A DNA stretch of 64,000 nucleotides from Candidatus Omnitrophota bacterium (GCA_903856085.1 CAIOAT010000016.1:8581-72580); one strand, 5' to 3'; numbered from the stretch's first letter, positions 9,386-38,640 are shown. Notes: generated by a model not told the origin, from the letters alone. Numbers and translations are program-made.

Positions 9386-11455
9386 TCACTGCAGATTTTT
9401 ATTGGCCTTGGGACGCTGAGGCTTGAGATCAAGGGGAAGCTGTTTGTCATGCAAAGCTTCGTTCTCAAGCGCTTTTTGGCAAAGGTACTCTTGAACACGG
9501 AATTTCTTTTCGCCCGCAGGATCCTTTTTTTGATAGGTCCCATCGGGAGAAAGCCCCCAAGCCTTCTGGTTATCCTTGAAATAATGATGGAGGAGCTGAA
9601 TGAGTTCTTTTTTGTTTTTTCTATCCTCCACAGGAAACATGAGCTCAAGACGCTTATCAAAATTCCTCGGCATCCAATCTGCGCTGGAAAGATAAACTTC
9701 GTCGTCCCCTGCGTTCGAAAAATAAAAAATCCGACTGTGTTCCAGGAACATATCGACAATACTCACCACCTCGATATTTTCACTCAGGCCTTTGACTCCT
9801 GGCCGGAGGCAACAGATCCCGCGAACATTCAGTTTTATCTGAACCCCTTTTTGCGAAGCGCGATAGAGAGCATCAATGATCTCCTTATCCACCAAAGAGT
9901 TCATCTTCGCAATTATGAGGCCGGAGCGTTCGGGGGAACTCTGCGCAGACTCCCGAAAGATCAACCGTAAAAGCTTCCGGCGTAACCCATAGGGTGCCAT
10001 TTCGAGCTTGGAAAAATGACCGGGGCTTGAGAACCCCGTCATGAGATTGAAGAAGGAACTGACATCCGCGGCAAACTCATCATGACTCGTAAAAAGATTA
10101 AGGTCCGAATAGATCTGAGCGGTTTTTTCATTGTAATTCCCGGTTCCAAGATGCAGATACCGCTTGATCCCTGCGGCTTCACGACGAACAACCAAGCAAA
10201 CTTTGGAATGTGTTTTCAGACCAACCACCCCATAAAGGATCGTAGCCCCCGCTCTCTCCAAACGTTTGGCCTCTTCGATATTCCGCTCTTCATCAAAGCG
10301 CGCCTTCAGCTCAACTAAGACGGTAACCTGTTTTCCCTTTTCCACTGCTTTTTCAAGAGCATTAATGACCGGCGAATGATTCCCAGTCCTGTAAAGCGTC
10401 TGTTTGATAGCTAAAACATCCGGATCTTCTGCGGCAGTCGAAACAAACCGAAGAAAAGCACTGAAAGAATCGTAGGGATAATGCACCAACAGATCTTTTT
10501 CCCTGAGCAATCCCCAAAGGTCACCGGCTTCCGTCATTTCCAGAACGGGTCGCGGTATCCATGCGAGCCGCTTGAACCTTTCGAACCCGGGCTGGAATGC
10601 TAGCTGAGAAATGCTTTTAAGATCAAGCCATCCCTCACTTTTAAAGATCTCATGTCCCTCAATGCCCATTTTCTGTTTCAAATGGTCGATCATGTCATCG
10701 GACGCATCGATCTCAAGACGCACGACCCGGCTTTCCTTTCTAGACCGCAGAGCCTCACTCATAAGTTTTGCTAGGTCTTCGTCCTTTTCTTCATCGATCG
10801 TAAATTCCGCGCAACGCGTCACCCTAAGGGACCCCTGACGCCCGATCATAAACCCGAGAAAAAGCTCCTGCGCAAAAAGACCGATCACGTCTTCGATCAG
10901 AATGAACGCATGGCTAGATTCCGAGGGAAGCATGATCATGCGCGGACAATTTTTAGGGATCTCAACCAAGGCGTAACGTGCGGCTGCGAGATTGGTGGAT
11001 TCTGTGAGTTCAAAAATACGGTAAAGACTCAGGTTTGCGAGGCTCGGGAAAGGCTGTTCTTCATGAACCGCGAGCGGTGTGAGGAGCGGCAAGAACTCCG
11101 TCAAAAAAAGGTTTTTAATGAACAGGAACTGTTTCTCGTTCAGGGCTTGCGGAAGGACTCGCACAATACCGTCCCCTTCCATTTCATGGACAAGAAGTTC
11201 CTTGAAATAAAGCTGCTGCTTATGGATCAAGGAAGACGCCTGCTGATAGATCTCCAGCAGAAGTGGGTCTGTTTCAGGGACGCTGGCAACGCGAACCATA
11301 AAAAATTCGTCGAAATTGGAGCTGACGATCCCGACAAACTTCAAGCGCTCCAGAACAGGATTCGAGATATCCATTGCCTCTGCCAGAACGCGGGCATTGA
11401 ACCGAATCCATGATAATTCCCGATCAAAATATTTTTCTTGAGGGATATTTTCCAT
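9386..11455 (-). CDS. ppk: Polyphosphate kinase 1
   Basis: 689 aa with a PPK1 N-terminus (YFDRELSWIRFNARVLAEA) and the conserved blocks GLKTHSKVCLVVRRE and FLEHSRIFYF. Confidence 0.95.
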   Translation of the reverse strand: MENIPQEKYFDRELSWIRFNARVLAEAMDISNPVLERLKFVGIVSSNFDEFFMVRVASVPETDPLLLEIYQQASSLIHKQQLYFKELLVHEMEGDGIVRVLPQALNEKQFLFIKNLFLTEFLPLLTPLAVHEEQPFPSLANLSLYRIFELTESTNLAAARYALVEIPKNCPRMIMLPSESSHAFILIEDVIGLFAQELFLGFMIGRQGSLRVTRCAEFTIDEEKDEDLAKLMSEALRSRKESRVVRLEIDASDDMIDHLKQKMGIEGHEIFKSEGWLDLKSISQLAFQPGFERFKRLAWIPRPVLEMTEAGDLWGLLREKDLLVHYPYDSFSAFLRFVSTAAEDPDVLAIKQTLYRTGNHSPVINALEKAVEKGKQVTVLVELKARFDEERNIEEAKRLERAGATILYGVVGLKTHSKVCLVVRREAAGIKRYLHLGTGNYNEKTAQIYSDLNLFTSHDEFAADVSSFFNLMTGFSSPGHFSKLEMAPYGLRRKLLRLIFRESAQSSPERSGLIIAKMNSLVDKEIIDALYRASQKGVQIKLNVRGICCLRPGVKGLSENIEVVSIVDMFLEHSRIFYFSNAGDDEVYLSSADWMPRNFDKRLELMFPVEDRKNKKELIQLLHHYFKDNQKAWGLSPDGTYQKKDPAGEKKFRVQEYLCQKALENEALHDKQLPLDLKPQRPKANKNLQ

Positions 11456-11467
11456 AGTTTTGAAACT

Positions 11468-13030
11468 CTAAAGCGACGGGCCCGCGCCTTGCTTCAGATC
11501 GAGGGGTGCTCCAAAAACATCGGCGAACATGTCCCCTTTCCGTCGCAGGCTTTCCCGTTCAAGCGAAATATCCCCGATCTCTTTCGGCACCCAGATCGCA
11601 TAAGTGTCTTCCGAACGTTCCAGAGTAAACGACCGGATCTTCTGCTGGTGGCCGGTGTCCAAAGCGTCTGCAATGCGCAGGATGGAAGCAAGTTTTGAGA
11701 CGATTGCCCGGTCCGATTTCGCAAGAGACATGTAAGGTACGTGCGTTTCGCGCGGCGGCACACGGCGATGATACCGGACAACATTAGCGACAATATTCTT
11801 GTCGGTCCTCCTCAGCCCGAAGATCTCGGCGGCATCCACTAAATAATACGAATGCTTGTGGTGTCCCGAAGGAGAAACGTAGGTTCCAATATCATGTAAG
11901 ATACCGGAAACCTCGAGCAAAAGACGCTCGCGGGACCCCATGCCATGATCTCCCGCAAGCAGGTCATAAAGTTTCAATGAGAGTGAGGCCACGCAAACCG
12001 CATGCCCCTTGTCGTACATATATTTTGCCCCAAGGTGGTGGGCGGAATTAAGGACCTGCTTCGAGACGTCCGTTCTTCGGTAACCCGAAAAAAGCTGGGC
12101 CATTTCGAGCAAAAGACCGTCCCGAATACTTAATTTTGGGATAATGACCTCCTCCGCCTTGGTTTCATTTAAAAAATTCAAATAAAAAAGAAGCGCGGGG
12201 TAAAGGGACTCCGCATGCCCATAATCGAGAGAGTATTGCGCGGCAATCTCTTCGGGCGTCATTTTCCCCACCCGCCCCATAAAACTCACAAATTCTTTCT
12301 TTTCAAGAATGGTGAAACGGTCGAGAGTCTCCGGAAGAAGCTGCTGCGATACGAATCGCATATCTCCACCCAGAGCAACGAACGTATCGATCTGCTCCAT
12401 ACGAACTTCACGCGCCACGTTCTGTGCGATATCCCGGATACTCTTCTTCAGAACACGCTGTATGAGTCCCGCATCTTCTTTCCCGGCTACGGCCTGCTCG
12501 GGAAGCCTTACTGATCCTATCGGCAGGGTCCGCGTAACGCTCACCCGACCTTGATCCATGATGATCATTTCCGTACTGCCAGAGCCTACTTCGACGATCA
12601 GGCAATTCTTTTTTTCGAGATCGATCCTCCCCTCCAGCGCATGCTCGACCGCGATCAATTCGAGACGGTTTTCTTCCGGGCCCTCCAAGATCTCCACTTC
12701 GATGCCAGCGCGCACATAGATTTGATCGATGAAATTATCCCGATTCTGGGCCTCCCGGACAGCGCTCGTGGCGATCGCTTGGACTTTTTTGATTCCATAC
12801 GTATCGATCACAGACTTGAAGTCTCGGAGAATGTTCACACCCTGGCGCATGGAAGCACTGCTCAACCTGCCCGTTTTAAAAACATCTTTGCCGAAACGAA
12901 CCGGCTTTTGAAGCTGCTCCAAATAACGAATCTCGTTTTTGGCTCCAACCTCCGCAATCACCATGCGGATTGCAATGGTTCCGATGTCAATAACGGCGGC
13001 GATATGTTTTTGAATTTCTTGTTCAGGCAT
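11468..13030 (-). CDS. ppx: Exopolyphosphatase (Ppx/GppA family) with C-terminal HD domain
   Basis: ASKHA-fold motifs AAVIDIGTIAIRMVIAEV and VEVGSGSTEMI. The C-terminal HD region is ILHDIGTYVSPSGHHKHSYY. It lies 12 nt upstream of ppk1. Confidence 0.9.
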   Translation of the reverse strand: MPEQEIQKHIAAVIDIGTIAIRMVIAEVGAKNEIRYLEQLQKPVRFGKDVFKTGRLSSASMRQGVNILRDFKSVIDTYGIKKVQAIATSAVREAQNRDNFIDQIYVRAGIEVEILEGPEENRLELIAVEHALEGRIDLEKKNCLIVEVGSGSTEMIIMDQGRVSVTRTLPIGSVRLPEQAVAGKEDAGLIQRVLKKSIRDIAQNVAREVRMEQIDTFVALGGDMRFVSQQLLPETLDRFTILEKKEFVSFMGRVGKMTPEEIAAQYSLDYGHAESLYPALLFYLNFLNETKAEEVIIPKLSIRDGLLLEMAQLFSGYRRTDVSKQVLNSAHHLGAKYMYDKGHAVCVASLSLKLYDLLAGDHGMGSRERLLLEVSGILHDIGTYVSPSGHHKHSYYLVDAAEIFGLRRTDKNIVANVVRYHRRVPPRETHVPYMSLAKSDRAIVSKLASILRIADALDTGHQQKIRSFTLERSEDTYAIWVPKEIGDISLERESLRRKGDMFADVFGAPLDLKQGAGPSL

Positions 13031-13038
13031 GCTGTTCC

Positions 13039-14031
13039 CTACTTTTTGGCCGCTTTAAAAACTTCATGGGCCATTTTGGCGGCTCCTAAAATAACCGCAT
13101 TATCCTTCAGTTTGGACGGGACGATTTTCACCACTTTGGCGAGGGGCTTAAGCGCGTAAGCTTCCATCTCACGTCTGACCTCAGGAAGAATGATCTTTCC
13201 CATCGCCTCCATCATTCCTCCTCCCAAGAGGATCAATTCCGGATTCAAAATGTTCACCACATTCGCTAGCGCAACCCCGAGCCACCGGGAACGGCTCCGG
13301 ATCAGCTCCTCTAACGCGATATCCCCCGCTTTGATAGCGCGGGACAAAGCACCGCTGCGGATTTTTTTTACGTTATAACCGATCTCTTCGAGAAGATGCG
13401 GGCACTTCTGCCGCAGCAAGAGGAACCCCGCCTCCGATGCAATAGCATTCCTGCCGACCAAAGCTCCGACTTTTTGGCGCGACGTTTCAAAATCAGAAAA
13501 AGAAGGAAGTGACAGAAATGTCTGGCCGATCTCACCAGCTCCTCCAGAAGCGCCACGGTAAAGATGTCCGTTGATGATGAGCGCCCCGCCGATACCCGTT
13601 CCTAGGAAAACCCCCACGACTTCCCGATAACCCCGCGCTGCGCCGAATTGCTGTTCTCCGAAAAGCCCCGCATTGGCATCGTTTTCAATAAAGACCGGTG
13701 TTTTCAGCTTCGCTTTCAGTTTTTCAGCAAGTGAATAATTCTTAAAAAAAGATACGTTGGAGGAGACTTTGACGATCCCTTTATAGATATCAATGATTCC
13801 AGGACAACCCACACCGATGGTTACAAGATCACTCAGGTCCGACCCGGTTTCTTCCAGAACTTCCTCGATCCCGTCAATGAGCTTGTTGAAAAAGAACCTC
13901 TCGCCGCGATTACCGTCCATCTCAAGTTTGACGGTCTTTTTTAAACTAAATTTCCTGTCAAAAAGACCTATCAGAATCTTGGTCCCGCCCAGATCGATGC
14001 CAAGGATGAACTTCTTTTTCTTGCCCGCCAT
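13039..14031 (-). CDS. ROK-family sugar kinase lacking the zinc CxCGxxGC motif (candidate glucokinase, possibly polyphosphate-dependent)
   Basis: Motifs GIDLGGTKILIG, ENDANAGLFGE and GTGIGGALIING. The only cysteines are in GVGCPG and RQKCPH, so the usual ROK zinc motif is absent. SD GGGGAGAG precedes ATG 14031. The track start at 14061 falls inside the predicted -10. Confidence 0.75.
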   Translation of the reverse strand: MAGKKKKFILGIDLGGTKILIGLFDRKFSLKKTVKLEMDGNRGERFFFNKLIDGIEEVLEETGSDLSDLVTIGVGCPGIIDIYKGIVKVSSNVSFFKNYSLAEKLKAKLKTPVFIENDANAGLFGEQQFGAARGYREVVGVFLGTGIGGALIINGHLYRGASGGAGEIGQTFLSLPSFSDFETSRQKVGALVGRNAIASEAGFLLLRQKCPHLLEEIGYNVKKIRSGALSRAIKAGDIALEELIRSRSRWLGVALANVVNILNPELILLGGGMMEAMGKIILPEVRREMEAYALKPLAKVVKIVPSKLKDNAVILGAAKMAHEVFKAAKK

Positions 14032-14059
14032 AGACTCTCCCCTTTCAAAATTGATTTCC

Positions 14060-14103
14060 ATTATAATGGCTCAGGGAAGTTTTTATGTAAAGCATTTGTA
14101 AAG
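14060..14103 (-). promoter_or_regulatory. Pho-box-like repeat plus consensus -10 for the ROK-ppx-ppk1 operon
   Basis: Top strand has TGTAAAG (14086-14092) and TGTAAAG (14097-14103), exactly 11 bp apart. On the gene strand this reads CTTTACA-AATG-CTTTACA. TATAAT (14065-14060) lies 20 nt downstream, and ATG 14031 follows about 29 nt later. Confidence 0.6.
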
Positions 14104-14279: not shown

Positions 14280-17200
14280 TTATGCCGCTACTTTAACAGC
14301 CTTTGCATTTCTCCAGGAAGCAGCAAGGAACTCTGTGACAAGCATCAAGGCATCTTTCATGCCCCAAAGATCCCGTTTTCTTCCTAGCTCAAAAAGTTGC
14401 CGACTTGTGACAAGATACCAGAGAAGAGAAAAAAGAACCTCCGGGTCAGAGCTCTTCAACTCCTTATCGTAATAAACAAGATTCCCAACGCAACTCTTCA
14501 CCTTTTGGACTTCGCGGCGATCGATTCCGACATAAGCATAATCCAAGCGTTGATATTGAGGTCCGGTGACTAAGGGACGCAGGAATTTCAAAATGGAAGC
14601 ACTAATGCTATCAGATATCTCTACTAGCTGAAAATGTCCGGTAGGAAGCTCCATTTTCTTTATCTTTTGTTCGATTGCCTCTTTCCCGGGAAATCGACTC
14701 CTCTCGAACAGGATAATGACACGGAACGGCAGCCGCGAAAGCAGCAAAAGATGCTCATCGCGAATTCCGATCCTCGCGTCCAGGAAAAGGGTGTTCAAGG
14801 CATTGGCCCGCTGCGGAAGAGCGCGGAACATTCCCATTCCTTTTTGGAAGGCTAAAAAATCGTCCCCTGATAGCGCTAAAAGCTCCTTCAGATCCGGTCC
14901 TGTGCTTTCTGAAAGAAAACTCGCGTCACCCAAAAGAGATTTTAAGCGCGGTAAAAGTTTTACATCCTCCGGTCCTAGGATCCATTCCGTGATCTTGATG
15001 GCAACCAGAAGACGGACTTTCTCCGAAACAACCGGCGTCACGTCTTCTTGCAAGGAAATCTCACGCGTAACCTCTTTGGGATTGAGTTCTAACGCTGGGG
15101 GTTTTTCGGAAGTTCTGTCTTCTCTCAATTCGGAACGCAGCACCCCACCAGGGCCCACAGCAGCCAACGCGGTTGCAATCGCCGAAAAGTGCGTCGTTAG
15201 AATCTTGTAAGTACGCGGCGTAAAGACACCTCGTTTTTCACGCAACATCGTAGAAACATCCTCGGGGGAGAGGGCCACGATCTCAACGGCATCATCTCCC
15301 GGTCTAAATTCTTTCCAATTGAACTCTCCATTGAGCGAAAAATGAAACAACTTTACATCCTCTTTTCTTGTGGTGGGAACTTGCCTTCGCCCCTCATGAT
15401 GAACTTCATAGGAAAGAGGAGGGAGCTCCCGAACTGGTAATGAGGTTAAGGCCGCGGGAAGAGGGCGGCCATCACGGAGTTCTTCAAGGAACCCCCTCTG
15501 GATTGCGGCTTCCGGACTTTCTCCGGGCTCCAGATGCTCAAAAACGGGAAGATCCAATAGACCCGGATTACTGGAAGTTAAATTACTGCGCCGCTGAAAA
15601 ACAACTTTTCCATCCTTGGTCACAAATGCGGCAACCTTTAAGGCCGCCAGACCTCTTGCATGCCCCTGTTTTCTTGGCAAGTGTACGATTTGATCGCCTC
15701 GCGTATCACGAAACATAAAAATCTGCCGATCCGCGAGCAATGAACCTTCCCCCTCCAATCGCTCGACGGCTGTACGGTTCGCCAGCTCCGGAAAAGATAC
15801 CTCGAGGCGCTTCATCCGCTCCAAAATCCCAGCCCGATTGCTCCCAGATATAAAAAAATGATCGGAAGGCGCCGGAACAAAAGCCTCCACTTCAGGAGGC
15901 TTCTGCGCAGTCGCACGAAAGGTCTCCCACAGTTTTTTCCCCATCGTGCTATAAATCTTCGCATATGGATTGGCGGCATCTTGTCCATCCGAAAACGTTT
16001 TTTGATTATGAGCGAGCCTCTGAAGATTAGGCGACACCGAAGTATTCCCTCGAAGCTGAAGATCGAACTCAGCAACCACTCTCGCAAAATCCTCTACGAG
16101 ATCCACCACAAAAGCTCCATATTTTGAGATCAAGCTTTCTGTTTTTTTACGAAATACGTCTATCAATCCTTCCATCTGTTGACGTTCCTCCTCCGTCCTT
16201 GAAACAAGAGCCATGGGCCCTTTGGGAACTGCAAATTGAGGCGTGATCGCATTATCCAATGTCAGACCGGTCCCGAACAAATGCCCATACTGACCTAAGG
16301 CACCTTTCAATTCTTCTGGGCGACGAACCACATGCTCCACATCATGCCTCGGAGAACCGTTACGCCCCAACAACACGGGATGCCGATCTGTTTCAACTTC
16401 TTCCAGAGAAGCAAGCCGTGCGTCAATAACGATCTGACTTCCCTGGTTGTTATAGCTGATCACATTCGAGCTCAGGTCGCCTCCAGGGAAAATGATCTCT
16501 CCATGCTTCACGCCTTGCTCCCTGAAGTCGCCTGCCATCCGCAAAGCTTCGGCAAGATTCATCTTAAAGACCGCCATAGCAACCGCCAAAGGAATACCTG
16601 GCTGCGGGAACCAATAGATCTGTAATTTTTTACCCAACGACTCCGCCAGATCGCGAGCGGCAAAAAATTGTCCGGCATTCCCCGGGAAAAGGCCGTCGGA
16701 TTCCGCTACTTTGAAACGGAAATGTTTCAGAACATGATCCTGCGCTACCATTGTTTCAAAAAAATTCCGATTCTCTCCGTTTTTAGGCGGGAGCAAAATG
16801 ATCACCTCGACGTCCTCCCTCAAATTTTCATCCAAAAGCGCCCGGCTCATCTTTGCCATCATAAGATTTTCTCCGGCGACATCGTCCATCTGGGAAAGGG
16901 CAACTTCCCTCCTGGGTTCTGAGGCCGGTCGTGACATTTCATATTGTTTGTTTCTCATACGTTTCGCGGACGCCCGTAAGGATTGGATCTCACGTTTGAA
17001 AGTCCCGTAACCATTTCCACTAAGATTCCTCAACATCGGCCCCACATGCCTCCAAACTGAGAAAAGGGTCCACAAAACACCAAAGATTGTCGGAACTGTA
17101 ATCAACAACTGGTGCAAACCAAATATAAGGTTCAGGATGGGTACAATAAAAAGAATCGCCACTCCGGCCACCGCCAATGCCCGGCCAAGCCATCGTCCAT

Positions 17201-20200
17201 AAAAATGGTCTAGCTTGTTTCCTTCCAGCTCATCAAGTTCGGCTGTGGGATGGAACGCTTTATGGAGTCCTGCTTTTGCCACGCGCATGGCCTCACGTTC
17301 ATTTTCAAATCCGGATATTCCCAGTTTTTGCATATTGGCCGTCACGCGTCTAAAGCTGTTCAGCGTCACCCACCGATTGATCGCCACCATCAGCGTCACC
17401 CCGAGGCAAAGACGCCATATGGAAAAGGTCCAGAGAACCTTCCGATTGTGCAGGATCTTCTGCCAATCCGAGAACTTCATTCCGTCTTGAAGCAATAACT
17501 TGGGAGGATAAAGATCGATTACCTGGGAAAGGGCAATGAGCCGATTCGACAGATTGAATCCTTCATTAAAATTCTCTGCAAAATCGGCTGATTTTTCAAG
17601 AAACCTCAAAACCTCCTGCTCTTCGATATCATTCCCAGTCCCCCGAGTCGCCTGAAATTGACGGGAAGCCGTCTGAGCGGTCAGGATCGATAAGCGGGCC
17701 AAAATCCCACGGATCTTGACCAGAGAATGCGTGTCGGGTTTCCACATTTCAGAAAGGTCCTCAAAATGTTCCCGGGAAAATCTAAGCAGCGGATGCTGCG
17801 CCAACTCGCTGGCCTTTGTGGTGATCATATCCCTTTCGCCCGAACCCAAGTGCTCATTTTCTAAAAGAAGTCGAGTCCAAGCCTGAAGCGGCTCAACGAT
17901 TTCCTGGAACACCCGCATATCCACGTCATCACCGCGGACCGCTCTTTGTTTATTAGCGTTTCTTTTTAAACGCATCCCGATTTTTCCCGCCTCGTCAAAG
18001 AGAATCTCTAGAGATTCCACGGAATCTCTCCGGAAAAACTTCTCATGCCCTCTTTTTTTCATCAATGCGAAAAAAAGTTTTGGAAGATTCCAGACAAGTA
18101 GAACCAAAGCAAGAACCGGGAAAAAACGCCAACTGATGTAACGAGCCCCAAAAGGGTTCATGAAATACCTCAAGAGAGCCGCTCGCTGCGTGGGATTTTG
18201 TTCTTCCCTTACTAGCTCCAAAAGTCCCAGAACCCCGATCTTTTGTCCGGGATGCATTTGAAATTGTTCCTGAACGGATGCGGGAATCGAATCTATTAAG
18301 CGAAGAGGTGGCGACTTTCTTTCGACAAGATCGCCTTTCTTCTTCGCCCAGGCTGAGGCTTTGGCGGACCCATCGAAAGCAATATCCGCAACACTACCCT
18401 CGCCAAGAATTCCCTCCGTATCGTCGCTGCGGATCACAACTCCCTCCCGTTCACCCAAAAGCCATTGGCTGCTGTTCGCGAGAGGGATCACTGCATACAC
18501 TGTCCCCATCAAAACGCCGCGGGATGTCACGACAGAGACTTTATCTCCTGTTTTAACGCTTCCCGTTTCGACAGGGAGCAGAAAAGGATCCTCATTGGAA
18601 AGACGGCCTGTCCATTCTGCAGAACGGGGGTCAACGCTCGTTCCCAAAAAAACCTCTTTGTTTACAATGCCGGCTTTCGTCACCTGCCCCGCCGCCAACG
18701 TTTGTCCATCTAAAGCAGTAACGCCCAGAACACGACCCCCCACGGGAGCTTTGAGCAGGATGGGCAATCCGCTCCGCTGGATCCCTGCAACGGCCCGCTG
18801 AGCTCTTTTTTCATAGTCCTGGAGAGAGCTTTCGGGAAGAGTCCTAAAGTCCTGGTTCGCCTTACGCATTGTCCGTGCAAGAGTCTCAAGCTGTCTGGCA
18901 ATCTTGAGCTGCCCACCTTGCCCCACAGGGATCCATTCCCCCAAGGAGTCCCCGGCCTTAACCGTTTGTCCATCCCGAACTGTAGCTCGAAAAATTCCGG
19001 CGTCGATCCCGGGAACGGGAGGAACACCGACCGGGATGAACTGTGAAGATGGAATAGTGGTGTGAAATCCGGCATTGTGATGCAATCCTAACGATTCGAC
19101 GCTCGGAGTATTATCTTTTATCAGCTTAATATCATATGCACAACTCGCCCCATGGGCCGGAAGAGATGTGGAAGATGGGAAGCTGAAATGAACTGTTAAA
19201 ATAAATTCGCCGTCCACTCCTTTCGCAAGGTCAAAATGACTTGCTTCCCAATCCAACACATTCACGGAATGCCCATTGACGGAAAGTTCGATATCATCGG
19301 CTCCGGAATATCCCGGAGGAAGAGCAATCTTTATGACCCCCTCATCCAGAGGAACGATCCCCACGGCATAACTACCAGCCGTTGCCGGCCCCTGATCCAG
19401 TGTTTGAACGATTGCCGGGCGGGGCGAAACCAGGATGTCGGCTTCTGCTTCCGCCTTCAGTTGAGCGAGCTCCAGTTGATGTTCGATCCTCTCAAATTGA
19501 TATTGAAATATTGTGTCCCGGTCGAGAGTCCCCGCATCTTTTTCTCCTCTGGCCACCAACCCGCCAAGTTCTCGGATCCTATCTTCCAGAAATTGAGTCC
19601 TGTTATCGCGTTCTGTATCCTCTCCTCTCGCAAGCAGGTCGCCTTTTTTGACAACATCTCCAGGTTTAACGGCATAAGTCATCTTATCTGCCGTCAATGG
19701 GGCTTTGAGCATGACCGCACCGGGAGGATTCACGATTGCTTGTCCTTTGCCTGTATACAAGACAGTTGCTGTGTTTGCGACAGAGTGTTGCTCTTCAAAC
19801 ACTGGTTTGACCTCTGTCCTATCAGAAACAAGGGAGGCTGATGCGACGGAAGACGGCTCTTTCACGGAAGCCTCCTCGTTCGTGACATTCAAAGCATTGG
19901 CAGTCCCGGCTGGGCTTTGAAATGGTATCCCGGAAAAATCTTTCTTCGTGAGTTTCTCCTTTGCGCCTGACGAAGTCATTACCTGTTCTCCTTGAGAAAC
20001 CGCATCGGCCAAGGTTTCGCGCCCATCCACGTTGCCTACACCAAGAATTTCGATGACGGAACTATCCGGAGAGACCGATTGGGGGTTGGATGTCGCATGA
20101 TCGGCTTCAGAAATTTTTGGGCTCTCCGCGGTGGTTGGAAGTGCGGAAGATGGCCCATCCGCAGAAACCCTGTCGGAGAGGACCGATGATGCCGCTGCAA

Positions 20201-23200
20201 CCGGAGAAATATACGCTCTCGATACTTTTGAAGAATGCCCGTTCTCTGGAACGGAAGACGCTCCCTCCAAAGAAACAATTCGGAAATAGCCTTGGTGTTG
20301 GGGCACCACCACGAATGTTGCTTCATAAGGATTCTTGGTTTCCTTGCGTAATGTCCAGATCCCCTTTCTTTCCGTTTTAAGAAATTTCGCACCCTGCAGG
20401 TCTTTTCCTAAAAAAGTCACTGTAGAGGAGGGAACGCCCCGCTGCATTAAAAGCTGCGCTCCTTTCATGTTTTCGGTGATCATTTGTTTGCCCACCAATT
20501 TCTGAATCGCCAATTCATTGGTTTGAGCCAAGGCTGACGAAGCCATGAGAAAAGCCCCCAGCAAAAATCCTCCCATTATTTTTAACAAGAAATGGATTCC
20601 CAGCTTTCGGCGAACTTCTGAACGCTGTGGTGCAATTCCTAGCCCGAAGAAATTTGCCCCGGTGATAACATTCAAAGGTTCTACCCACGTTTCGGATGCG
20701 CGCAGATCTGTAAAACCCTTCGTAGTCCATACTTTTTCGGATACAACTTGAGCATTCAACCAATCTCTTAGTTCGTCCGGGATAGTTTTTGATCCCACCA
20801 GTCTCCACGAGAAAACCTTCCGGGAAAAACCTAAGACGATTTGGATATCAGCAATGGGTGGGGCGTTTTGATTCGTCTTCACGTGAAATAGGGTGCCATT
20901 TATGCCAAGCTTGTGCCCTCGTCTTAAAAATCCCTGCAATTCTGGAGACATCTCCAAAACAATTTTGCCAAGATCAACCCTGTAAACCAACCCCGCAACC
21001 TTTGTCTCTGGCCCAAAAGCTTCAATGTGCTTCGCCGAAAGAGAGGCTGCGCTCCGCATTTCGAATCTTGTCACACCCTTCTTGAAAGACCGATAAGCCT
21101 GCATCAAAAGGCCTGCGGCGATTGCTGACGCTTCCTCTTTTTCTTCAGCCCTTAGCTTTGATTCCCGCGTGTTCAATTCGATATATTCACGAATTCGAAC
21201 GTTAAGTCCAGATAGCGCAGAGGAGGTAAAATTCATCTCGAAAGATTCGATCGCTTTAGCGGCTAGCGCGTAAGGAACCAAGGTATCCGGCAGATCCTTG
21301 GCCTGTCCAAGATCGTTTCTAACCGATTCCAAATCGGCAAAAGTAACCCCGCCATTCCGTTCTTTTCCATAAATGAGTCCCCACGCAAGCGCCCAAGCCG
21401 CCATCGCCTGCTCAGCAGGGATTCGAATGGCCCCCTTAGCCGACGTCATAAGCTCGAGTGACACGGCGAGCATAGACGTCGGGATCATTGCATCCGCATC
21501 ATCCAACAACCCGCCATCGATCAAGCTCACGATCGCATGATGGGCAAGAGCACGCACGGTTCCGCAATCACTGAGATTAAGTTGCAAAAGCACTTCTGCA
21601 CGCTTCAAAGCTTCCCCAAGGATTTCCTTATTCATAACGGGATCAAGATAATTTGAACGCGCCTCCGAACGAACGACGATTTGCGCTTTCACCGATCCCG
21701 GTTCAGAACGGCCAGACGCTGCCTTTTCGCGAGAAAACCGATGGCGAGAGAGTTTCGAATCAACATTGGAACGCCGAAAGGCCTCTGAAATCAAAACACC
21801 CAGATGAATTTTTTTAATCATTTTCAAAGCCACCCAGGAAAAGGCAATATCCCCCGTAAGGATGACGAGCTCTGAAAGGTAGGGGCTTACAAGCTTGTTG
21901 ATAATCATCGCCATCCCCTCAACAGGAAGGAACCATAACAACAATTGACGGCGACTCTCCTTAAAAGATCCGTGGCTTTTGAAGAGTCGTAGAGATTCGA
22001 AGTTATTTTCAGGATAGATGTTTGTATAATATTTCCAGAGCATAAGTGGATAAAAAATATAAAAATTGATCAAAGCATCCCCCATGGTTTTAAGGACGAT
22101 CTCAGACCACACATCAAGCCATGGGGAAAGATTTAATTTCCCGATTAAGGCATAATAAACGGTAAAAAATAAAGCGAACAAGCTAGCTGGAGCTGCGGCT
22201 TTCCTGGAGTCTTTCCAGAATGTTTTCATGAACACTCCTCGAAAGCCATGGCGAAGATAATCCTGCATCCAGACACAATATGCCGCAATCATGCCAGCCC
22301 AGGCGATACTCACGCCAAGTGAAAGAACTAAAGAATGCCATGACGCGTTCTGAAGATGCGGTTTAAGGATAAACGCCAGCCCCAGAGTGGCGGCTGAAAA
22401 TCCAGCTGTCCCCATCGCGGCAGGTGTGATTTGTTTGAGATGAGCGAGTTTGGATCTCTGGTTCCTTATTTCGGACCGGCCGAGCAAGACTTGGGGCAAT
22501 CCCTTTACGTCCCGAGTAAGCACTTGCAGCTCTTTGGCTGCCAATGTGGCCGCCTTGCGAGAGAATAGGATTTGGATCTGATTACTGGGGATCTTTAAAG
22601 CGTCCACAATAAGCCGGTCCTCGGTAACGCCAGCCCCACGAGCCTTTTTCAGATAGCCATCAATCCTTGCATTCTCGGCCTCCGCAATCCGTATCGTCTC
22701 ATTTTCAGCCACAATCGTTTGAAGAAGACCTGCAATCTTCTCTTCGATTTTGTCATGAACTGTCAAGAGCTCGGCTTCCGCTACACGAGTCTCCAGAAGA
22801 GCTATTTCCCGATTGGCTCGCTCAGCGCCCCCGAAAGTCACCTTCCCGCCGAGACCTACGGCCTGCTGATCCTCCGTGCGTTGTTTTGCCTCCGGAACAA
22901 CTCTTGTATTGAACACATCCGGAACTTTTGTCCCATAGGAATCGAAATAGTTGAATCCCTTAAGACCGATCGAGTAACCGTTCTCTCTTGCAGCCAATCT
23001 CGCGGCCGTTGCGGCAGTCAAACGGGCCTCATAAGCCAACGCAAGTTCACGGTTTGCCGGAAGTTTGACGCCTTCTTTGGAGGTTGCTTTAAGACCAAGC
23101 GCTATTCGTTGATCGGTTGTGATCGTCCACCCTTCCGGAAATCGCACATAATTCAAGGCATTGGAAAAAGTCGCACATCCTAAGATGTTTTGGCCATAGA

Positions 23201-25985
23201 GTGTCCTCAAAGGCAATGCCGCCTTCTCCAACTTGGAACGATGCTCATTAAGACGTAAAAGCCACTCCGCCTTAAGATCTCCGATCGCCTGGCGTTTTGC
23301 GGCTGTTGACTGCGAGTTCTTGCCGGCGACTTCGCTAGCATGATCGATCGCCTCAAGGGCTGCTTCAATAATTGGGCCTTGTGATTCAAGCGTTTTCATT
23401 TCGTAGGCGGCCCCCAAGAAATCGAGGTATCGTTCACCCGCCACCTGCTGAAGTTCCAGTCCGGCTGTTTCAACCATCTGCTGCGCCAGTTCTCGCGCCA
23501 GGATATCCTGACCTTTCCAGTATTTGCTAATCTCCGCTGCAAGGGATAACACCGCACTGGCCGCCGAATCCAAACCGATCCCCGTTAATTGTATCTGCCC
23601 AAGATTCGGCAAAGTTCCTTCGACGCCAAGCCCAAGCACCGGTTTCCCATCTGCGAGACCTAGGGTAGGCATGAGAGAAATGCTCCCGGACAAACTTCTT
23701 TTTTTGGATTCCCGGATACTCACCTCAAAACGGTGTCTCAGAATGACCGGATCGCGAGTAACCAATGCTTCAGCCAGGGAGCTTTCATTCACCAGAATCG
23801 GACCGGACAGAGAAATTTCTTTTTGCGGCAAAATGTACTGACGATCCGATTCGATCTGTTGTCTCGCATGGTCACGGCCCAAATTCGCACAACCGCTGAG
23901 AATGCCTGCCATTACAACCCAAAGAACCGCCTTCATGAACGAGGAGGGCTTCCATCGGATCTCGGCGCGCGAGAACAAATTGTTTTTTCCCTGGATCGCG
24001 TCGGGGAGCAATGCCAAAAGTCCCTTCTCCGCCCCGGGAGATAGCAAGGGAGTCGGATCTAAAATGAATCCGACATGGGTATTCATTCTCTGAAATAAGA
24101 AGCTCAAAACGTGTTGCTCTAATGCTTGACGAACTTCATGCATCCCTTTGTAAAATTTCTCCGGAATGGCTGCGAATATCCGTTGTCCCTCCCCATCCAT
24201 GAATGCCGACTTTCCCGTCTGGGATCTTTGGGCCAACACGCTGTGTTCTCCCTCGGAAACATCGACCACCGCCACTTGATGTTTTTTAAGTGATCTTTCG
24301 ATCTGTCCCATAGCCGCTTCAAAATGGTCAAATGCTGGCTCTCCGACCATCTGCCTCGCCTCGGAGTGTTCCATCACGGGGAGCTGCGCGGGAGCGATCG
24401 TAGACGTCCCGGGATACCGCCCCATCAAGAGATCACTATAGGGAAGCATCTTTTCTTCCGGGTTGAAATACGGCGTCACAAGATTGAACGGTATCCCAAG
24501 CGCTTCTGTTCGCCTGAGTAGTCCTTCCTTATGGTAGCCTCCGGCAACAATCACAATGTTTCTGGTTTTATTCCCCTGTCCATTCAAAAAAAGAGGATCT
24601 TGAATCCTTTTTTTGATGATATCAAAAAAAACATCTTCGCGAGCTTCTGCCTGAGCATAAAAATCCAAAACAAGGTCGACAAGGGGCGCTATCGTCTCTT
24701 CGTGAGGGAGTGATGGCTCCCGGAGAAAGCGCTTGTAAGCCTGCACCCAGTTCTTGCGAAAATGGTCGCGAAACCGGGCCACGCACTCCCTTTTAAGTTC
24801 AAGGGAAAGCGCCTGTTTCAGGAGGAAAAAATCCTGGTAAAAGGCAAGCCATCGTCCAGCTACCGGATCACTGCGACGGAGGGTCTCATACAACCTGTTC
24901 TCGAGCGTCTGGATTTCGTCAAAAAGTCTTTCGGCTATAAGTTCGCTTTCAAATACCTGCAAAGCAAGAAACTTCCGAATCATCGGATAACGTCCCCAAG
25001 AAAGCTCCCGTGCCAAAAATTTCTCCATGATGCGTTCCGCCATAACGCGAGAAGTCACGCTTCCAGTCTGAAGTGCGCGTGACCGGAAAGTTGCATTCGA
25101 AGCGGCGCTCTCGAGCCATTCGATTTCCGATCGAGAATCCGGACCAAGCACCCGTTTAAGCTGTCCGATTTCTTTCGTGACTGCGCTACAATCCGGTGCT
25201 GTTTCCGTATTCAAAACACGGAAAAACCGAACTAGCTGAGGCCAATCTTTTTGCGTCGAAAGATCCCGCCAATCGATTCCCAAATGCTTCGAAGAGCAAT
25301 CAAAAAGAAACTTCATGTACTCGCTTAAATCATTTTGGCTTTCCTGATGAGATCTCCACATTTTCAAGAAATGGAATACCTGCGGATCAATAACTTTTTT
25401 GATATCTTGAATTAATGATGCCTCCACCTGATCAAGAAACTCTCGAATCTCACCATGGTTGCGCATAACGGCCCGGTAAGTTTCGAGGTTCTTTCGGTAA
25501 AGCCCTGCCTCCTCAATCCCGTACACGCGTATGCCGGAGTGATTTGCAAAGAATTGAGTGGCGCCATTAACGAATCCCGCTTGGAAAAGGCTTCCCAAAA
25601 AGATCCTGTTCTTTTCATCATCCTGGAAAGGCTTCAGAGCCTCGGGAGACAGAGGGCCTGATGCACCTTCAATAAAAAGCATATCGAGTTTCTTTTGCTC
25701 TAGAAGGGACTCTAGTATCTTCGTAATATTCTTTTGAGCCTCTTCCGAAGCATGCGCATCTTGGATATGGTAGAAACTGAAAGGCACGGACCTTTCCGGG
25801 GGCGGGGACTTTTCAAGGCTTCCTACTTTGGGGGATAAAAAAACGGGGGCTTCGGCAACAGCGCCGGTATAAAAATATGCCGTCACAGCACGCACTTCTT
25901 GGGAAGGAAAAATGGTTTCAAAAACAAAAATGGCCACAACAGCAAATGCTACGATCCGGATCAATTTGCTTTTCTTGGCTTTCAT
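14280..25985 (-). CDS. Giant multi-module envelope protein or polyprotein (3,901 aa from ATG 25985; the frame is open from TTG 26015 = 3,911 aa)
   Basis: A single uninterrupted frame of 11.7 kb. The N-terminus is MKAKKSKLIRIVAFAVVAIFVFETIFPSQEVRA (signal anchor). The modules are listed as separate features below. Confidence 0.8.
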   Translation of the reverse strand: MKAKKSKLIRIVAFAVVAIFVFETIFPSQEVRAVTAYFYTGAVAEAPVFLSPKVGSLEKSPPPERSVPFSFYHIQDAHASEEAQKNITKILESLLEQKKLDMLFIEGASGPLSPEALKPFQDDEKNRIFLGSLFQAGFVNGATQFFANHSGIRVYGIEEAGLYRKNLETYRAVMRNHGEIREFLDQVEASLIQDIKKVIDPQVFHFLKMWRSHQESQNDLSEYMKFLFDCSSKHLGIDWRDLSTQKDWPQLVRFFRVLNTETAPDCSAVTKEIGQLKRVLGPDSRSEIEWLESAASNATFRSRALQTGSVTSRVMAERIMEKFLARELSWGRYPMIRKFLALQVFESELIAERLFDEIQTLENRLYETLRRSDPVAGRWLAFYQDFFLLKQALSLELKRECVARFRDHFRKNWVQAYKRFLREPSLPHEETIAPLVDLVLDFYAQAEAREDVFFDIIKKRIQDPLFLNGQGNKTRNIVIVAGGYHKEGLLRRTEALGIPFNLVTPYFNPEEKMLPYSDLLMGRYPGTSTIAPAQLPVMEHSEARQMVGEPAFDHFEAAMGQIERSLKKHQVAVVDVSEGEHSVLAQRSQTGKSAFMDGEGQRIFAAIPEKFYKGMHEVRQALEQHVLSFLFQRMNTHVGFILDPTPLLSPGAEKGLLALLPDAIQGKNNLFSRAEIRWKPSSFMKAVLWVVMAGILSGCANLGRDHARQQIESDRQYILPQKEISLSGPILVNESSLAEALVTRDPVILRHRFEVSIRESKKRSLSGSISLMPTLGLADGKPVLGLGVEGTLPNLGQIQLTGIGLDSAASAVLSLAAEISKYWKGQDILARELAQQMVETAGLELQQVAGERYLDFLGAAYEMKTLESQGPIIEAALEAIDHASEVAGKNSQSTAAKRQAIGDLKAEWLLRLNEHRSKLEKAALPLRTLYGQNILGCATFSNALNYVRFPEGWTITTDQRIALGLKATSKEGVKLPANRELALAYEARLTAATAARLAARENGYSIGLKGFNYFDSYGTKVPDVFNTRVVPEAKQRTEDQQAVGLGGKVTFGGAERANREIALLETRVAEAELLTVHDKIEEKIAGLLQTIVAENETIRIAEAENARIDGYLKKARGAGVTEDRLIVDALKIPSNQIQILFSRKAATLAAKELQVLTRDVKGLPQVLLGRSEIRNQRSKLAHLKQITPAAMGTAGFSAATLGLAFILKPHLQNASWHSLVLSLGVSIAWAGMIAAYCVWMQDYLRHGFRGVFMKTFWKDSRKAAAPASLFALFFTVYYALIGKLNLSPWLDVWSEIVLKTMGDALINFYIFYPLMLWKYYTNIYPENNFESLRLFKSHGSFKESRRQLLLWFLPVEGMAMIINKLVSPYLSELVILTGDIAFSWVALKMIKKIHLGVLISEAFRRSNVDSKLSRHRFSREKAASGRSEPGSVKAQIVVRSEARSNYLDPVMNKEILGEALKRAEVLLQLNLSDCGTVRALAHHAIVSLIDGGLLDDADAMIPTSMLAVSLELMTSAKGAIRIPAEQAMAAWALAWGLIYGKERNGGVTFADLESVRNDLGQAKDLPDTLVPYALAAKAIESFEMNFTSSALSGLNVRIREYIELNTRESKLRAEEKEEASAIAAGLLMQAYRSFKKGVTRFEMRSAASLSAKHIEAFGPETKVAGLVYRVDLGKIVLEMSPELQGFLRRGHKLGINGTLFHVKTNQNAPPIADIQIVLGFSRKVFSWRLVGSKTIPDELRDWLNAQVVSEKVWTTKGFTDLRASETWVEPLNVITGANFFGLGIAPQRSEVRRKLGIHFLLKIMGGFLLGAFLMASSALAQTNELAIQKLVGKQMITENMKGAQLLMQRGVPSSTVTFLGKDLQGAKFLKTERKGIWTLRKETKNPYEATFVVVPQHQGYFRIVSLEGASSVPENGHSSKVSRAYISPVAAASSVLSDRVSADGPSSALPTTAESPKISEADHATSNPQSVSPDSSVIEILGVGNVDGRETLADAVSQGEQVMTSSGAKEKLTKKDFSGIPFQSPAGTANALNVTNEEASVKEPSSVASASLVSDRTEVKPVFEEQHSVANTATVLYTGKGQAIVNPPGAVMLKAPLTADKMTYAVKPGDVVKKGDLLARGEDTERDNRTQFLEDRIRELGGLVARGEKDAGTLDRDTIFQYQFERIEHQLELAQLKAEAEADILVSPRPAIVQTLDQGPATAGSYAVGIVPLDEGVIKIALPPGYSGADDIELSVNGHSVNVLDWEASHFDLAKGVDGEFILTVHFSFPSSTSLPAHGASCAYDIKLIKDNTPSVESLGLHHNAGFHTTIPSSQFIPVGVPPVPGIDAGIFRATVRDGQTVKAGDSLGEWIPVGQGGQLKIARQLETLARTMRKANQDFRTLPESSLQDYEKRAQRAVAGIQRSGLPILLKAPVGGRVLGVTALDGQTLAAGQVTKAGIVNKEVFLGTSVDPRSAEWTGRLSNEDPFLLPVETGSVKTGDKVSVVTSRGVLMGTVYAVIPLANSSQWLLGEREGVVIRSDDTEGILGEGSVADIAFDGSAKASAWAKKKGDLVERKSPPLRLIDSIPASVQEQFQMHPGQKIGVLGLLELVREEQNPTQRAALLRYFMNPFGARYISWRFFPVLALVLLVWNLPKLFFALMKKRGHEKFFRRDSVESLEILFDEAGKIGMRLKRNANKQRAVRGDDVDMRVFQEIVEPLQAWTRLLLENEHLGSGERDMITTKASELAQHPLLRFSREHFEDLSEMWKPDTHSLVKIRGILARLSILTAQTASRQFQATRGTGNDIEEQEVLRFLEKSADFAENFNEGFNLSNRLIALSQVIDLYPPKLLLQDGMKFSDWQKILHNRKVLWTFSIWRLCLGVTLMVAINRWVTLNSFRRVTANMQKLGISGFENEREAMRVAKAGLHKAFHPTAELDELEGNKLDHFYGRWLGRALAVAGVAILFIVPILNLIFGLHQLLITVPTIFGVLWTLFSVWRHVGPMLRNLSGNGYGTFKREIQSLRASAKRMRNKQYEMSRPASEPRREVALSQMDDVAGENLMMAKMSRALLDENLREDVEVIILLPPKNGENRNFFETMVAQDHVLKHFRFKVAESDGLFPGNAGQFFAARDLAESLGKKLQIYWFPQPGIPLAVAMAVFKMNLAEALRMAGDFREQGVKHGEIIFPGGDLSSNVISYNNQGSQIVIDARLASLEEVETDRHPVLLGRNGSPRHDVEHVVRRPEELKGALGQYGHLFGTGLTLDNAITPQFAVPKGPMALVSRTEEERQQMEGLIDVFRKKTESLISKYGAFVVDLVEDFARVVAEFDLQLRGNTSVSPNLQRLAHNQKTFSDGQDAANPYAKIYSTMGKKLWETFRATAQKPPEVEAFVPAPSDHFFISGSNRAGILERMKRLEVSFPELANRTAVERLEGEGSLLADRQIFMFRDTRGDQIVHLPRKQGHARGLAALKVAAFVTKDGKVVFQRRSNLTSSNPGLLDLPVFEHLEPGESPEAAIQRGFLEELRDGRPLPAALTSLPVRELPPLSYEVHHEGRRQVPTTRKEDVKLFHFSLNGEFNWKEFRPGDDAVEIVALSPEDVSTMLREKRGVFTPRTYKILTTHFSAIATALAAVGPGGVLRSELREDRTSEKPPALELNPKEVTREISLQEDVTPVVSEKVRLLVAIKITEWILGPEDVKLLPRLKSLLGDASFLSESTGPDLKELLALSGDDFLAFQKGMGMFRALPQRANALNTLFLDARIGIRDEHLLLLSRLPFRVIILFERSRFPGKEAIEQKIKKMELPTGHFQLVEISDSISASILKFLRPLVTGPQYQRLDYAYVGIDRREVQKVKSCVGNLVYYDKELKSSDPEVLFSLLWYLVTSRQLFELGRKRDLWGMKDALMLVTEFLAASWRNAKAVKVAA
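15156..15665 (-). other. Giant ORF Nudix-hydrolase module (aa ~3451-3620) with a variant Nudix box
   Basis: LKVAAFVTKDGKVVFQRR...LDLPVFEHLEPGESPEAAIQRGFLEELR fits GX5EX7REUXEEXGU, except that RE is replaced by RG. The box is at nt 15477-15554. Confidence 0.6.
18336..19763 (-). other. Giant ORF module E (aa ~2085-2560): HlyD/membrane-fusion-protein-like periplasmic adaptor segments
   Basis: Lipoyl-like hairpin motifs YAVKPGDVVKKGDLLARGE and ATVRDGQTVKAGDSLGEW. Coiled-coil stretch FERIEHQLELAQLKAEAEA. Beta-barrel-like segments LKAPVGGRVLGVTALDGQTLAAGQ and VKTGDKVSVVTSRGVLMGTVYAVIP. Confidence 0.5.
19791..20213 (-). other. Ser/Pro/Ala-rich low-complexity linker (aa ~1935-2075)
   Basis: Sequence SPVAAASSVLSDRVSADGPSSALPTTAESPKISEADHATSNPQSVSPDSS...EPSSVASASLVS. 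Confidence 0.6.
20526..20609 (-). other. Internal Sec-type signal peptide (aa 1803-1830: RKLGIHFLLKIMGGFLLGAFLMASSALA|QT)
   Basis: A basic n-region, a hydrophobic core and an A-L-A cleavage motif, starting immediately after RSEVR. Confidence 0.55.
21672..22463 (-). other. Giant ORF module C (aa 1185-1448): roughly six-helix integral membrane module, unknown family
   Basis: Hydrophobic stretches occur near aa 1201-1217, 1226-1249, 1275-1293, 1305-1327, 1356-1376 and 1381-1400. The module is bounded by RSEIR and RSEAR. Confidence 0.5.
22479..23888 (-). other. Giant ORF module B (aa 710-1179): TolC/OEP-like outer-membrane factor
   Basis: About 470 aa, the typical OMF size, with a two-fold internal organisation. 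N-terminal block SLAEALVTRDPVILRHRFEVSIRE...MPTLGL; second half LALAYEARLTAATAARLAARENGYSIGLKG. Long Ala/Glu/Leu-rich helices are present, and a lipobox precedes it as in NodT-type OMFs. Confidence 0.5.
23889..23936 (-). other. Internal lipoprotein-type signal peptide with lipobox (aa 694-709: MKAVLWVVMAGILSG|C)
   Basis: A hydrophobic core is followed by I-L-S-G-C, which matches the L-[AS]-[GA]-C lipobox. The Cys709 codon (tgt) is at 23889-23891. The signal starts 7 residues after RAEIR. Confidence 0.6.
24456..25784 (-). other. Giant ORF module A (aa ~78-520): candidate Tiki/TraB/ChaN-superfamily fold
   Basis: FYHIQDAHASEEAQKNITKILESLLEQKKLDMLFIEGASG resembles the GExH...H...E pattern. The late block RNIVIVAGGYHKEGLLRRTEALGIPF resembles the G..H block of ChaN/TraB proteins. 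This is pattern memory only. Confidence 0.35.
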
Positions 25986-26096
25986 TTTTTGCCCTTTTCC
26001 AATGGTGGAAGACAACTCTTTAAGGTTTTATAAAAGTTTTTCCTTCTGATCTCACGGAAAGCTTAACTTCGTTGTGAAAACTCTGCATCACATCCC

Positions 26097-36279: not shown

Positions 36280-36392
36280 CGCTCTTCCTCCCTTTTGTTA
36301 GACACCCAGGACTGCCTTGCAACCGATTTTGCGGGTTCGCAGTACTGCTGAAGTCTTTATTTTTATTCAGAGGATCGAGGAACATTTTTCTA

Positions 36393-36575: not shown

Positions 36576-36663
36576 TTTGCAACTCCTTATTTTCTACTGT
36601 CCGGCCGTTGACCGCTCCTGCGTTCGATGAGAAGCGCAAAAGCCGCGCCCCTCTAACAACAAT

Positions 36664-37884: not shown

Positions 37885-37992
37885 GATTTCAACACATCCT
37901 TAGGCGCTTGGAAAATCCTAGGTTCGCTAGAACAAACGAAAGAAAATGGACGCGATAACAACAACGGTCGGCCCCGACAACGGAAAGTGACA

Positions 37993-38630: not shown

Positions 38631-38640
38631 TTTTTGGATT

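Follow-up and report, generated by a model that had tools for sequence, protein, structure and literature searches.

A single open reading frame (ORF) of 3,901 codons was analysed on the minus strand of a 64,000-nucleotide stretch of DNA from Candidatus Omnitrophota bacterium (GCA_903856085.1 CAIOAT010000016.1:8581-72580; hereafter the window), and the evidence leans towards its encoding a bacterial polyprotein which is cut at the junctions between its modules. Two marks of a polyprotein were seen in this giant ORF, namely several gene-sized modules in one frame and a conserved short motif at their junctions. As proposed here, one chain would consist of a signal peptide and a hydrolase domain of the TIKI/TraB family, followed by five cargo modules on short linkers bearing the motif R-[S/A]-E-(V/L/A/M/I)-R. 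A cut at or beside the motif, on the cytoplasmic side, would free new N-termini of the modules; those of module 2 (lipobox LSGC) and module 5 (AxA) would then serve as ordinary export signals directing them to the Sec pathway, and module 2 would additionally undergo lipoprotein processing. Cleavage of the chain at the motifs is judged probable. The most likely candidate for the site-specific protease would be the N-terminal TIKI-like domain (N-domain), an assignment which is possible and which we make tentatively.

The frame runs without interruption on the minus strand over positions 14280..26015 in the ORF listing of the window, giving 3,911 codons from TTG 26015 or 3,901 from ATG 25985, as a preliminary description of this DNA had stated; public contigs agree. 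ATG 25985 is the likely start, since it is preceded by an AAAGGG Shine-Dalgarno-like box, of a kind also found upstream of other genes in the window, and since it is the start in public gene calls too, giving 3,901 amino acids (aa). Residues are numbered from this ATG; numbering from the TTG is obtained by adding 10. The length of the ORF is not a matter of chance, because the next longest ORF of the window has 979 aa and the G+C content of the window is ~0.49. Public assemblies (NCBI, JGI, ENA, Logan and GEM) contain the identical 3,901-aa product on 14-18 contigs, the longest of which spans 414 kb; relatives at least 90% identical to it are also 3,901 aa long, and orthologues at 31-53% identity display the same module order in a single ORF. 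The giant ORF is real. An assembly or frameshift artefact, which the preliminary description had wanted excluded, is excluded by the identical ORF on at least 18 independently assembled contigs and by the orthologues, which show the fusion in the same single frame. An altered genetic code was considered as well and found to be unnecessary, the neighbouring genes being of normal length.

Five copies of the R-[S/A]-E-x-R motif are present in the ORF (Table 1), compared to 0.2 expected from its composition, and none of 20,000 shuffles reached five. A six-frame scan of the window showed that, among the ORFs above 44 codons, this one alone contains the motif. The codons specifying it differ at all five sites, indicating that the signal acts at the protein level. 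If the chain were cut at the motifs, the predicted products would be of about 74, 55, 30, 38, 200 and 31 kDa. A sixth candidate site, RFEMR at aa 1650 (TTG numbering), was rejected, as it is not conserved in orthologues. In the closest orthologue (P0002) an extra transmembrane helix, AVVIGVMFLSIGSLIGALLAAKL, is found at aa ~640-665, and three extra motif copies lie between the N-domain and the outer-membrane-factor-like (OMF-like) module; both are absent from the window protein, and both bear on the question of topology.

Table 1. Features of the giant ORF, with positions counted from the first letter of the window and residues from ATG 25985.
Feature	Position	Strand	Basis or remark
Whole ORF	14280..25985	-	3,901 codons from ATG 25985; stop 14280-14282
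N-terminal Sec-type signal peptide, MKAKKSKLIRIVAFAVVAIFVFETIFPSQEVRA, V-R-A at -3 to -1	25887..25985	-	read from sequence
TIKI/TraB/EreA-like hydrolase domain (aa 58-565), with helical insertion of ~300 residues	24291..25814	-	predicted fold and residues
Candidate catalytic D76	25758-25760	-	
Candidate catalytic H78	25752-25754	-	
Candidate catalytic E106	25668-25670	-	
Candidate catalytic R449	24639-24641	-	
Candidate catalytic H485	24531-24533	-	
Degenerate motif HSEAR (aa 541-545)	24354..24368	-	orthologues have RPEAR/RSEAR at the aligned position
Junction motif 1, RAEIR (aa 673-677)	23955..23969	-	
Module 2 (~55 kDa): lipoprotein signal and OMF-like domain	22479..23954	-	lipobox and OEP match
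Lipobox LSGC, Cys	23889-23891	-	read from sequence
Pfam OEP match in module 2	22674-23039	-	sub-threshold
Junction motif 2, RSEIR (aa 1170-1174)	22464..22478	-	R[SAP]ExR in this alignment column in 9/9 orthologues
Module 3 (~30 kDa): polytopic membrane protein, 4-6 hydrophobic helices	21672..22463	-	no Pfam/NCBIfam match
Junction motif 3, RSEAR (aa 1439-1443)	21657..21671	-	
Module 4 (~38 kDa): soluble	20625..21656	-	no family or PDB match
Junction motif 4, RSEVR (aa 1788-1792)	20610..20624	-	signal peptide next
Module 5 (~200 kDa): signal/anchor, Ser/Pro-rich linker, adaptor region, 4-5 transmembrane helices, ~450-aa region, Nudix	15138..20609	-	
Tandem MexA-like adaptor region in module 5	18141-19898	-	PDB profile and Foldseek
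Nudix domain in module 5	15225-15635	-	Pfam
Junction motif 5, RSELR (aa 3617-3621)	15123..15137	-	
C-terminal module, 280 aa, ends ...KAVKVAA	14283..15122	-	

The giant ORF belongs to a large family. A search with the whole protein returned 76 homologues, all of 2,170-6,482 aa, from metagenome-assembled genomes (MAGs) of Omnitrophota, Auribacterota, Elusimicrobia and Endomicrobiaceae, and these have only the N-terminal ~500 aa in common. Downstream they contain unrelated enzymes: PTS EI, HPr, phosphoglucomutase, glucose-6-phosphate isomerase, glycogen synthase and phosphorylase, kinases, sigma factors and methyltransferases. A profile of the N-domain matched 10,049 cluster representatives (50% identity), 7,173 of them at E<=1e-30; in the 150 matches listed the domain is always N-terminal, in proteins of 554-7,376 aa. 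A genome scan with the whole protein gave no match; a narrower alignment gave loci in GTDB species genomes, 212 of which were confirmed by one narrow peptide pattern, and the 80 retained of these 212, up to four per genome, were from Omnitrophota or unclassified MAGs. In the upstream flanks of L004, L007, L020, L034 and L035, RSExR-rich ORFs of 2,600-3,200 aa were found running off the locus on the same strand as the N-domain ORF; polyprotein genes appear to cluster, apparently in tandem.

Across the family the motif was observed 689 times, compared to 34 expected, with up to 24 copies per protein, and about half of the long members repeat it. Family ORFs contain it at 1.84 copies per 1,000 aa, and flanking ORFs, other giant ORFs set aside, at ~0.03 copies per 1,000 aa. 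The logo of 679 sites reads [SAGP]-R-[S.75 / A.25]-E-[V/L/A/M]-R-[A/S/T], its flanks being uninformative, and in proteins that are 21-55% identical the motif stands in register at orthologous junctions inside gap-rich linkers. When 87 motif-bearing proteins were cut at the motif, 539 internal modules were obtained with a median of 309 aa (interquartile range 185-534), which is the size of ordinary bacterial proteins; the N-module was the sole universal one (87/87), and Pfam domains sit inside the motif-delimited modules, never across a site. A hydrophobic signal-like stretch was found after 10.7% of the sites, whereas 2.1% have one in front and the figure for random positions is 4.4%; a lipobox follows nine sites, as against one at random. 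The specificity of the motif differs by genome: two loci of the same assembly agree in the residue at position 4 with a probability of 0.345, compared to 0.132 for loci of different assemblies, and genome-specific flavours are seen, such as RSESR in four loci of one genome and RAE[K/R]R in two loci of another. Members without RSExR repeat other motifs (AxSLG up to 10 times, GARLA 11 times, AARLS 7 times), which suggests lineage-specific junction codes. KSExR, RPExR and RSDxR are also repeated; the members without RSExR include P0022, P0026, P0030, P0184, P0058 and P0036.

From these properties the motif is best read as a site that is recognised by an enzyme encoded in the genome and at which units equivalent to single genes are separated. 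It is possible, and we hold it with some reserve, that Omnitrophota have a widespread, hitherto undescribed way of expressing genes, in which sets of ordinary proteins (cytoplasmic, membrane or exported) are encoded as polyproteins rather than in operons, each headed by a dedicated TIKI-family protease that would cut a genome-specific junction code. Held with the same reserve, this would extend to some Elusimicrobiota and Auribacterota (by MAG labels), to AxSLG and others as the codes of other lineages, and to ~10,000 known clusters.

The AlphaFold2 (AF2) model of the N-domain was confident, with a predicted local distance difference test (pLDDT) of 85.7, and displayed an alpha/beta fold with a parallel beta-sheet core, as in the TIKI/TraB/EreA superfamily; a helical insertion of ~300 residues splits the core. 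H78, E106, R449 and H485 are invariant in the 76 homologue sequences, and position 76 is D in 69 and E in three of them. Active TIKI enzymes contain a set of two His, two Glu and an Arg, and in RRSP, a MARTX effector with the TIKI fold, as predicted here for the N-domain, these are E3900, H3902, E3930, R4001 and H4030 (PMC6254334). The N-domain residues D76-x-H78, E106, R449 and H485 follow RRSP in order and spacing, matched as such and without superposition, and the distance from H78 to E106 (+28 residues) equals that from H3902 to E3930. Judged by these residues, the N-domain appears to retain the complete complement of catalytic residues found in active TIKI hydrolases, and activity is predicted. 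It is the leading candidate for the protease because it is the sole universal part of the family and its catalytic set is complete. The signal anchor which the preliminary description had placed at the N-terminus is present as a Sec-type signal. A comparison of the N-domain with PDB sequences gave no match. The HSEAR segment at aa 541-545 was modelled by AF2 as a helix packed on the N-domain (pLDDT 83-90); it may be the remnant of a first site that has decayed, or it may act as a pseudo-substrate.

In module 2 a lipobox, L-[SA]-G-C, is found 12-40 residues past junction 1, and its Cys is invariant in 9/9 orthologues. Pfam OEP matches five of the nine orthologues of this module (best E 2.4e-6; P0003 scores 23.9 bits), and the window copy itself scores 20.3 bits, under the Pfam cut-off of 22. 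Of the internal lipoprotein signal and TolC-like module put forward earlier, the former is borne out by the invariant Cys, and the latter is favoured by the orthologue matches, the window copy remaining sub-threshold; we are moderately confident of the OMF-like identity of module 2, as predicted from these matches. A profile of the module gave no match to PDB sequences, and a search for its stand-alone homologues returned none. The scan of the giant ORF with family models, which perform poorly on so divergent a sequence, covered Pfam and NCBIfam, and NUDIX alone passed its cut-off; NCBIfam gave no match. The transmembrane clusters of the ~6-helix module of the preliminary description are present in module 3, and module 4 matched neither family models nor PDB.

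Module 5 begins, directly after junction motif 4, with the signal peptide RKLGIHFLLKIMGGFLLGAFLMASSALA/Q (...SSALA/Q), in agreement with the second internal Sec signal noted previously. A profile of its adaptor region compared with PDB gave MexA and MexC as the top six matches (E 6e-4), and all 50 Foldseek matches listed were membrane-fusion proteins, with E from 4e-8. The AF2 model of the region is of low confidence (pLDDT 60.6) and contains two beta/alpha-hairpin/beta units. None of the Pfam HlyD models scored above its cut-off in this region, and Biotin_lipoyl_2 reached 21.4 bits compared to a cut-off of 29.8; HlyD_3 matches two of eight orthologues of the region (E 1.7e-3). The assignment of a MexA-like periplasmic adaptor, a type of protein in which lipoyl halves on either side of an alpha-hairpin precede a beta-barrel, holds as a prediction from profile and model, in keeping with the HlyD-like segments described before. 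Two successive lipoyl/alpha-hairpin units can be followed on the minus strand at 18141-19898, with model helices at 95-153 and 327-375, in a tandem membrane-fusion-protein-like arrangement. The Nudix domain, likewise anticipated, scores 26.7 bits with Pfam NUDIX (cut-off 21.1) and has a weak Nudix match in PDB (E 0.0047); as read from its residues, the Nudix box (...GESPEAAIQRGFLEEL...) agrees with the canonical one only in part. The ~450-aa region of module 5 had no Pfam match even at E 5, and PDB matches were confined to the Nudix part.

The 280-aa C-terminal module of the preliminary description is present as well. It gave no match in Pfam, and a homologue search returned one fragment only. 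As a hidden protease or a universal second bookend it was considered and rejected, being homologous among the seven closest relatives only. Between subgroups the C-terminal modules have in common only the last 30-90 residues and a terminal [AS]A, which follows an amphipathic helix in 129 of 207 family members; this end of the protein could act as an ssrA-like degron or serve in docking. The product of the giant ORF ends in ...RNAKAVKVAA (14283-14312, minus strand), and similar AA or SA ends are seen in family members P0166-P0296.

The giant ORF shares with tripartite efflux and secretion systems a putative OEP/TolC-family-like lipoprotein encoded together with a MexA/AcrA/MacA-like adaptor. 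Unlike in those systems, all parts lie in one ORF, the adaptor is tandem and fused to transmembrane helices, the ~450-aa region and Nudix, and there is no recognisable pump: no inner-membrane RND, ABC or MFS family was found in any module with Pfam or NCBIfam. It is therefore not a complete tripartite system, and the idea that a whole tripartite operon had been fused in one frame was not upheld. The pair of OMF-like and adaptor-like modules suggests an envelope-spanning conduit.

Since signal peptides follow the junctions, a cut before the export signals would have to take place in the cytoplasm, and such a cut would remove the topology problem raised by the preliminary description, in which the internal export signals of an intact chain would face the wrong way. 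Several observations weigh against a polyprotein processed by its own N-domain. The domain gave no match to Pfam or NCBIfam models at E<=0.1 (TraB_PrgY_gumN, Cofac_haem_bdg, Erythro_esteras), so that of the Tiki/TraB/ChaN-like module proposed earlier the fold and catalytic residues stand, and the curated TraB, ChaN and erythromycin esterase models do not match. Relative to the TIKI/TraB/PrgY/EreA/ChaN superfamily the N-domain is thus set apart by the missing model matches and by its split core, and that superfamily includes esterases and non-enzymes as well. A canonical Sec signal (net +3 n-region, AxA) is found at the N-terminus in 161 of 199 family members, and a transmembrane helix soon after it in only 22%; for these reasons the N-domain is predicted to be periplasmic, and yet the export-signal junctions appear to need a cytoplasmic cut. 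This apparent paradox has two solutions: the N-domain does its work while it is still unexported, or the cut is made by a different enzyme. With 1,829 aa and no internal motif, module 5 remains a fusion in which periplasmic, membrane and cytoplasmic parts are combined. In 55 of 163 long family members no repeated motif is recognisable, and cargo-less members of ~1,000 aa exist, so that the N-domain may have an independent function. Nearest neighbours by N-domain share their motif class, a relation confounded by phylogeny; similarly, a comparison of N-domain columns between the RSExR and AxSLG classes for determinants of specificity revealed no clear charge switch, the clustering again being confounded by phylogeny. 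As to the cargo-less members, complete ones of ~740-1,100 aa consist of the N-domain and a C-terminal region of up to ~500 aa, often with an [AS]A end and often motif-free; they were found in L007, L017, L022, L025, L035, L041 and L052, and as P0176, P0190, P0256 and others.

One possible explanation, which we regard as unlikely but as the most serious alternative, is that a separate protease encoded elsewhere cuts RSExR in the cytoplasm, the TIKI-like domain being exported to another periplasmic job. The canonical Sec N-termini, usually without a stop-transfer helix past the N-domain, would fit this scenario, as would the junction-adjacent signal peptides and lipoboxes that require a cytoplasmic cut, the existence of cargo-less members, and the sharing of one motif flavour by paralogous loci of a genome, as expected of a single trans-acting enzyme. 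Set against it are the universality of the N-domain among the 87 motif-bearing proteins and its N-terminal place in all 150 profile matches listed, its complete catalytic set, and the lack of a conserved neighbouring protease gene in the window.

A further scenario, to which we assign a rather low probability, is an uncut, membrane-anchored mega-protein of ~430 kDa, in which RSExR would be a feature of linkers serving docking, regulation or flexibility. Cleavage is inferred only, the literature treats giant ORFs of Omnitrophota as single proteins with a signal peptide and transmembrane helices (10.64898/2026.06.07.730766), and module 5 indicates that a large fusion is tolerated. In an intact chain, however, the invariant lipobox Cys (9/9) and the AxA signal after the motifs would be functionless, and the internal signals would leave the OMF-like part in the cytoplasm; the gene-like sizes of the modules, their unrelated housekeeping contents and the genome-dependent specificity of the motif likewise speak against it.

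Separate synthesis of the modules from one mRNA, by internal initiation or by termination and reinitiation, is very improbable. In-frame ATG codons do occur 7-21 codons past sites 1-4; these are not preceded by Shine-Dalgarno-like boxes, unlike the real genes of the window, nor are the candidate starts conserved in the orthologue alignment. Moreover, no ATG lies within 40 codons of site 5, no stop codons separate the modules, and the conserved signal is one of five amino acids with varying codons. Of the two routes that the preliminary description took to be implied, processing is strengthened by the junction motif and internal initiation loses ground with the lack of such boxes and of conserved starts. 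An assembly artefact or a pseudo-fusion by lost stop codons retains virtually no probability in view of the identical ORF on contigs of independent assemblies, of orthologues (31-53% identity) that keep the single frame and of thousands of family members built alike.

The giant ORF is surrounded by separate genes of the ordinary kind, for a ROK kinase, Ppx, Ppk, a two-component pair, enzymes of the tricarboxylic acid cycle, MutY and RsmB; neighbouring genes belong to 90%-identity clusters named after Candidatus Omnitrophota. Directly downstream, on the same minus strand at 9386-14061, a ROK-family kinase, Ppx/GppA with an HD domain, and Ppk1 are encoded by separate genes that form a polyphosphate cluster. 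Within 34714-41580 the G+C content falls to 0.44-0.45 at 36-40 kb; this dip overlaps the 979-aa ORF of a GT92/GT2/TOD1-like glycosyltransferase and ORFs of 521 and 406 aa without a Pfam match. Scans of the window for tRNA and Rfam families gave no matches.

Among known systems, MARTX toxins resemble the giant ORF in being single bacterial chains of several thousand residues with unrelated functional modules, and in them a protease domain of the same chain frees the modules by cutting the linkers between them, as is proposed here. MARTX chains are processed by a cysteine protease domain of internal position, which inositol hexakisphosphate activates once inside the host cell; the chain is secreted by a type I system, and its cargo consists of toxins. 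The giant ORF departs from MARTX in its candidate enzyme, a TIKI-type domain placed at the N-terminus after a Sec signal, in its R-[S/A]-E-x-R junctions, and in a cargo that resembles housekeeping proteins and proteins of the envelope. Viral polyproteins, such as those of picornaviruses, flaviviruses and nidoviruses, likewise consist of gene-sized products in one frame with short conserved junction motifs; their protease is encoded in the chain, as is the candidate here, and in flaviviruses internal signal sequences are combined with junction cleavage, to which the arrangement of the giant ORF can be likened. Unlike these, the giant ORF lies in a cellular genome among ordinary separate genes, with nothing viral in the window, and its candidate protease is of another family.

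Giant genes of Omnitrophota have been described before, cleavage by C39 or S8 domains being speculated upon and the cleavage points stated to be unknown (10.1101/2023.11.21.568195), and 'multi-enzyme metabolic clusters' of the phylum have been defined and read as single proteins with a signal peptide and transmembrane helices (10.64898/2026.06.07.730766). These giant multi-enzyme ORFs are like the present one in their phylum, in their unrelated enzyme domains, in starting with a signal peptide and in their scattered transmembrane helices; the present ORF is shorter (3.9 kaa, i.e. thousand aa). The two papers discuss C39 and S8 peptidase domains, and polyprotein, motif and TraB are absent from both (10.1101/2023.11.21.568195; 10.64898/2026.06.07.730766). 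A literature search found no description of such bacterial polyproteins or of the motif strings, and papers beyond the literature searched may exist. In view of the Omnitrophota giant ORFs and of the MARTX toxins, the earlier statement that no described system is built in this way was too strong. The giant ORF is related to two known kinds, the giant ORFs of Omnitrophota and processed polyproteins, and adds to them a concrete, testable cleavage code.

The polyprotein reading is directly testable, since motif, predicted products and five candidate residues for catalysis have all been specified. If the motif is a cleavage site, it would supply the missing cleavage points of the giant genes of Omnitrophota, and these ORFs could be divided in silico into the proteins actually made, which would serve annotation, structure prediction and metabolic reconstruction. 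The TIKI/TraB protease superfamily would gain a new class of substrate, and a compact, programmable pair of protease and site might result. Six gene-sized proteins in one chain with a protease-like head suggest a virus-like way of making sets of proteins. If this is true, the large-scale use of polyproteins in place of operons would extend beyond viruses and a few toxins to cellular organisms, with fixed stoichiometry and with a single promoter and a single start site serving many proteins.

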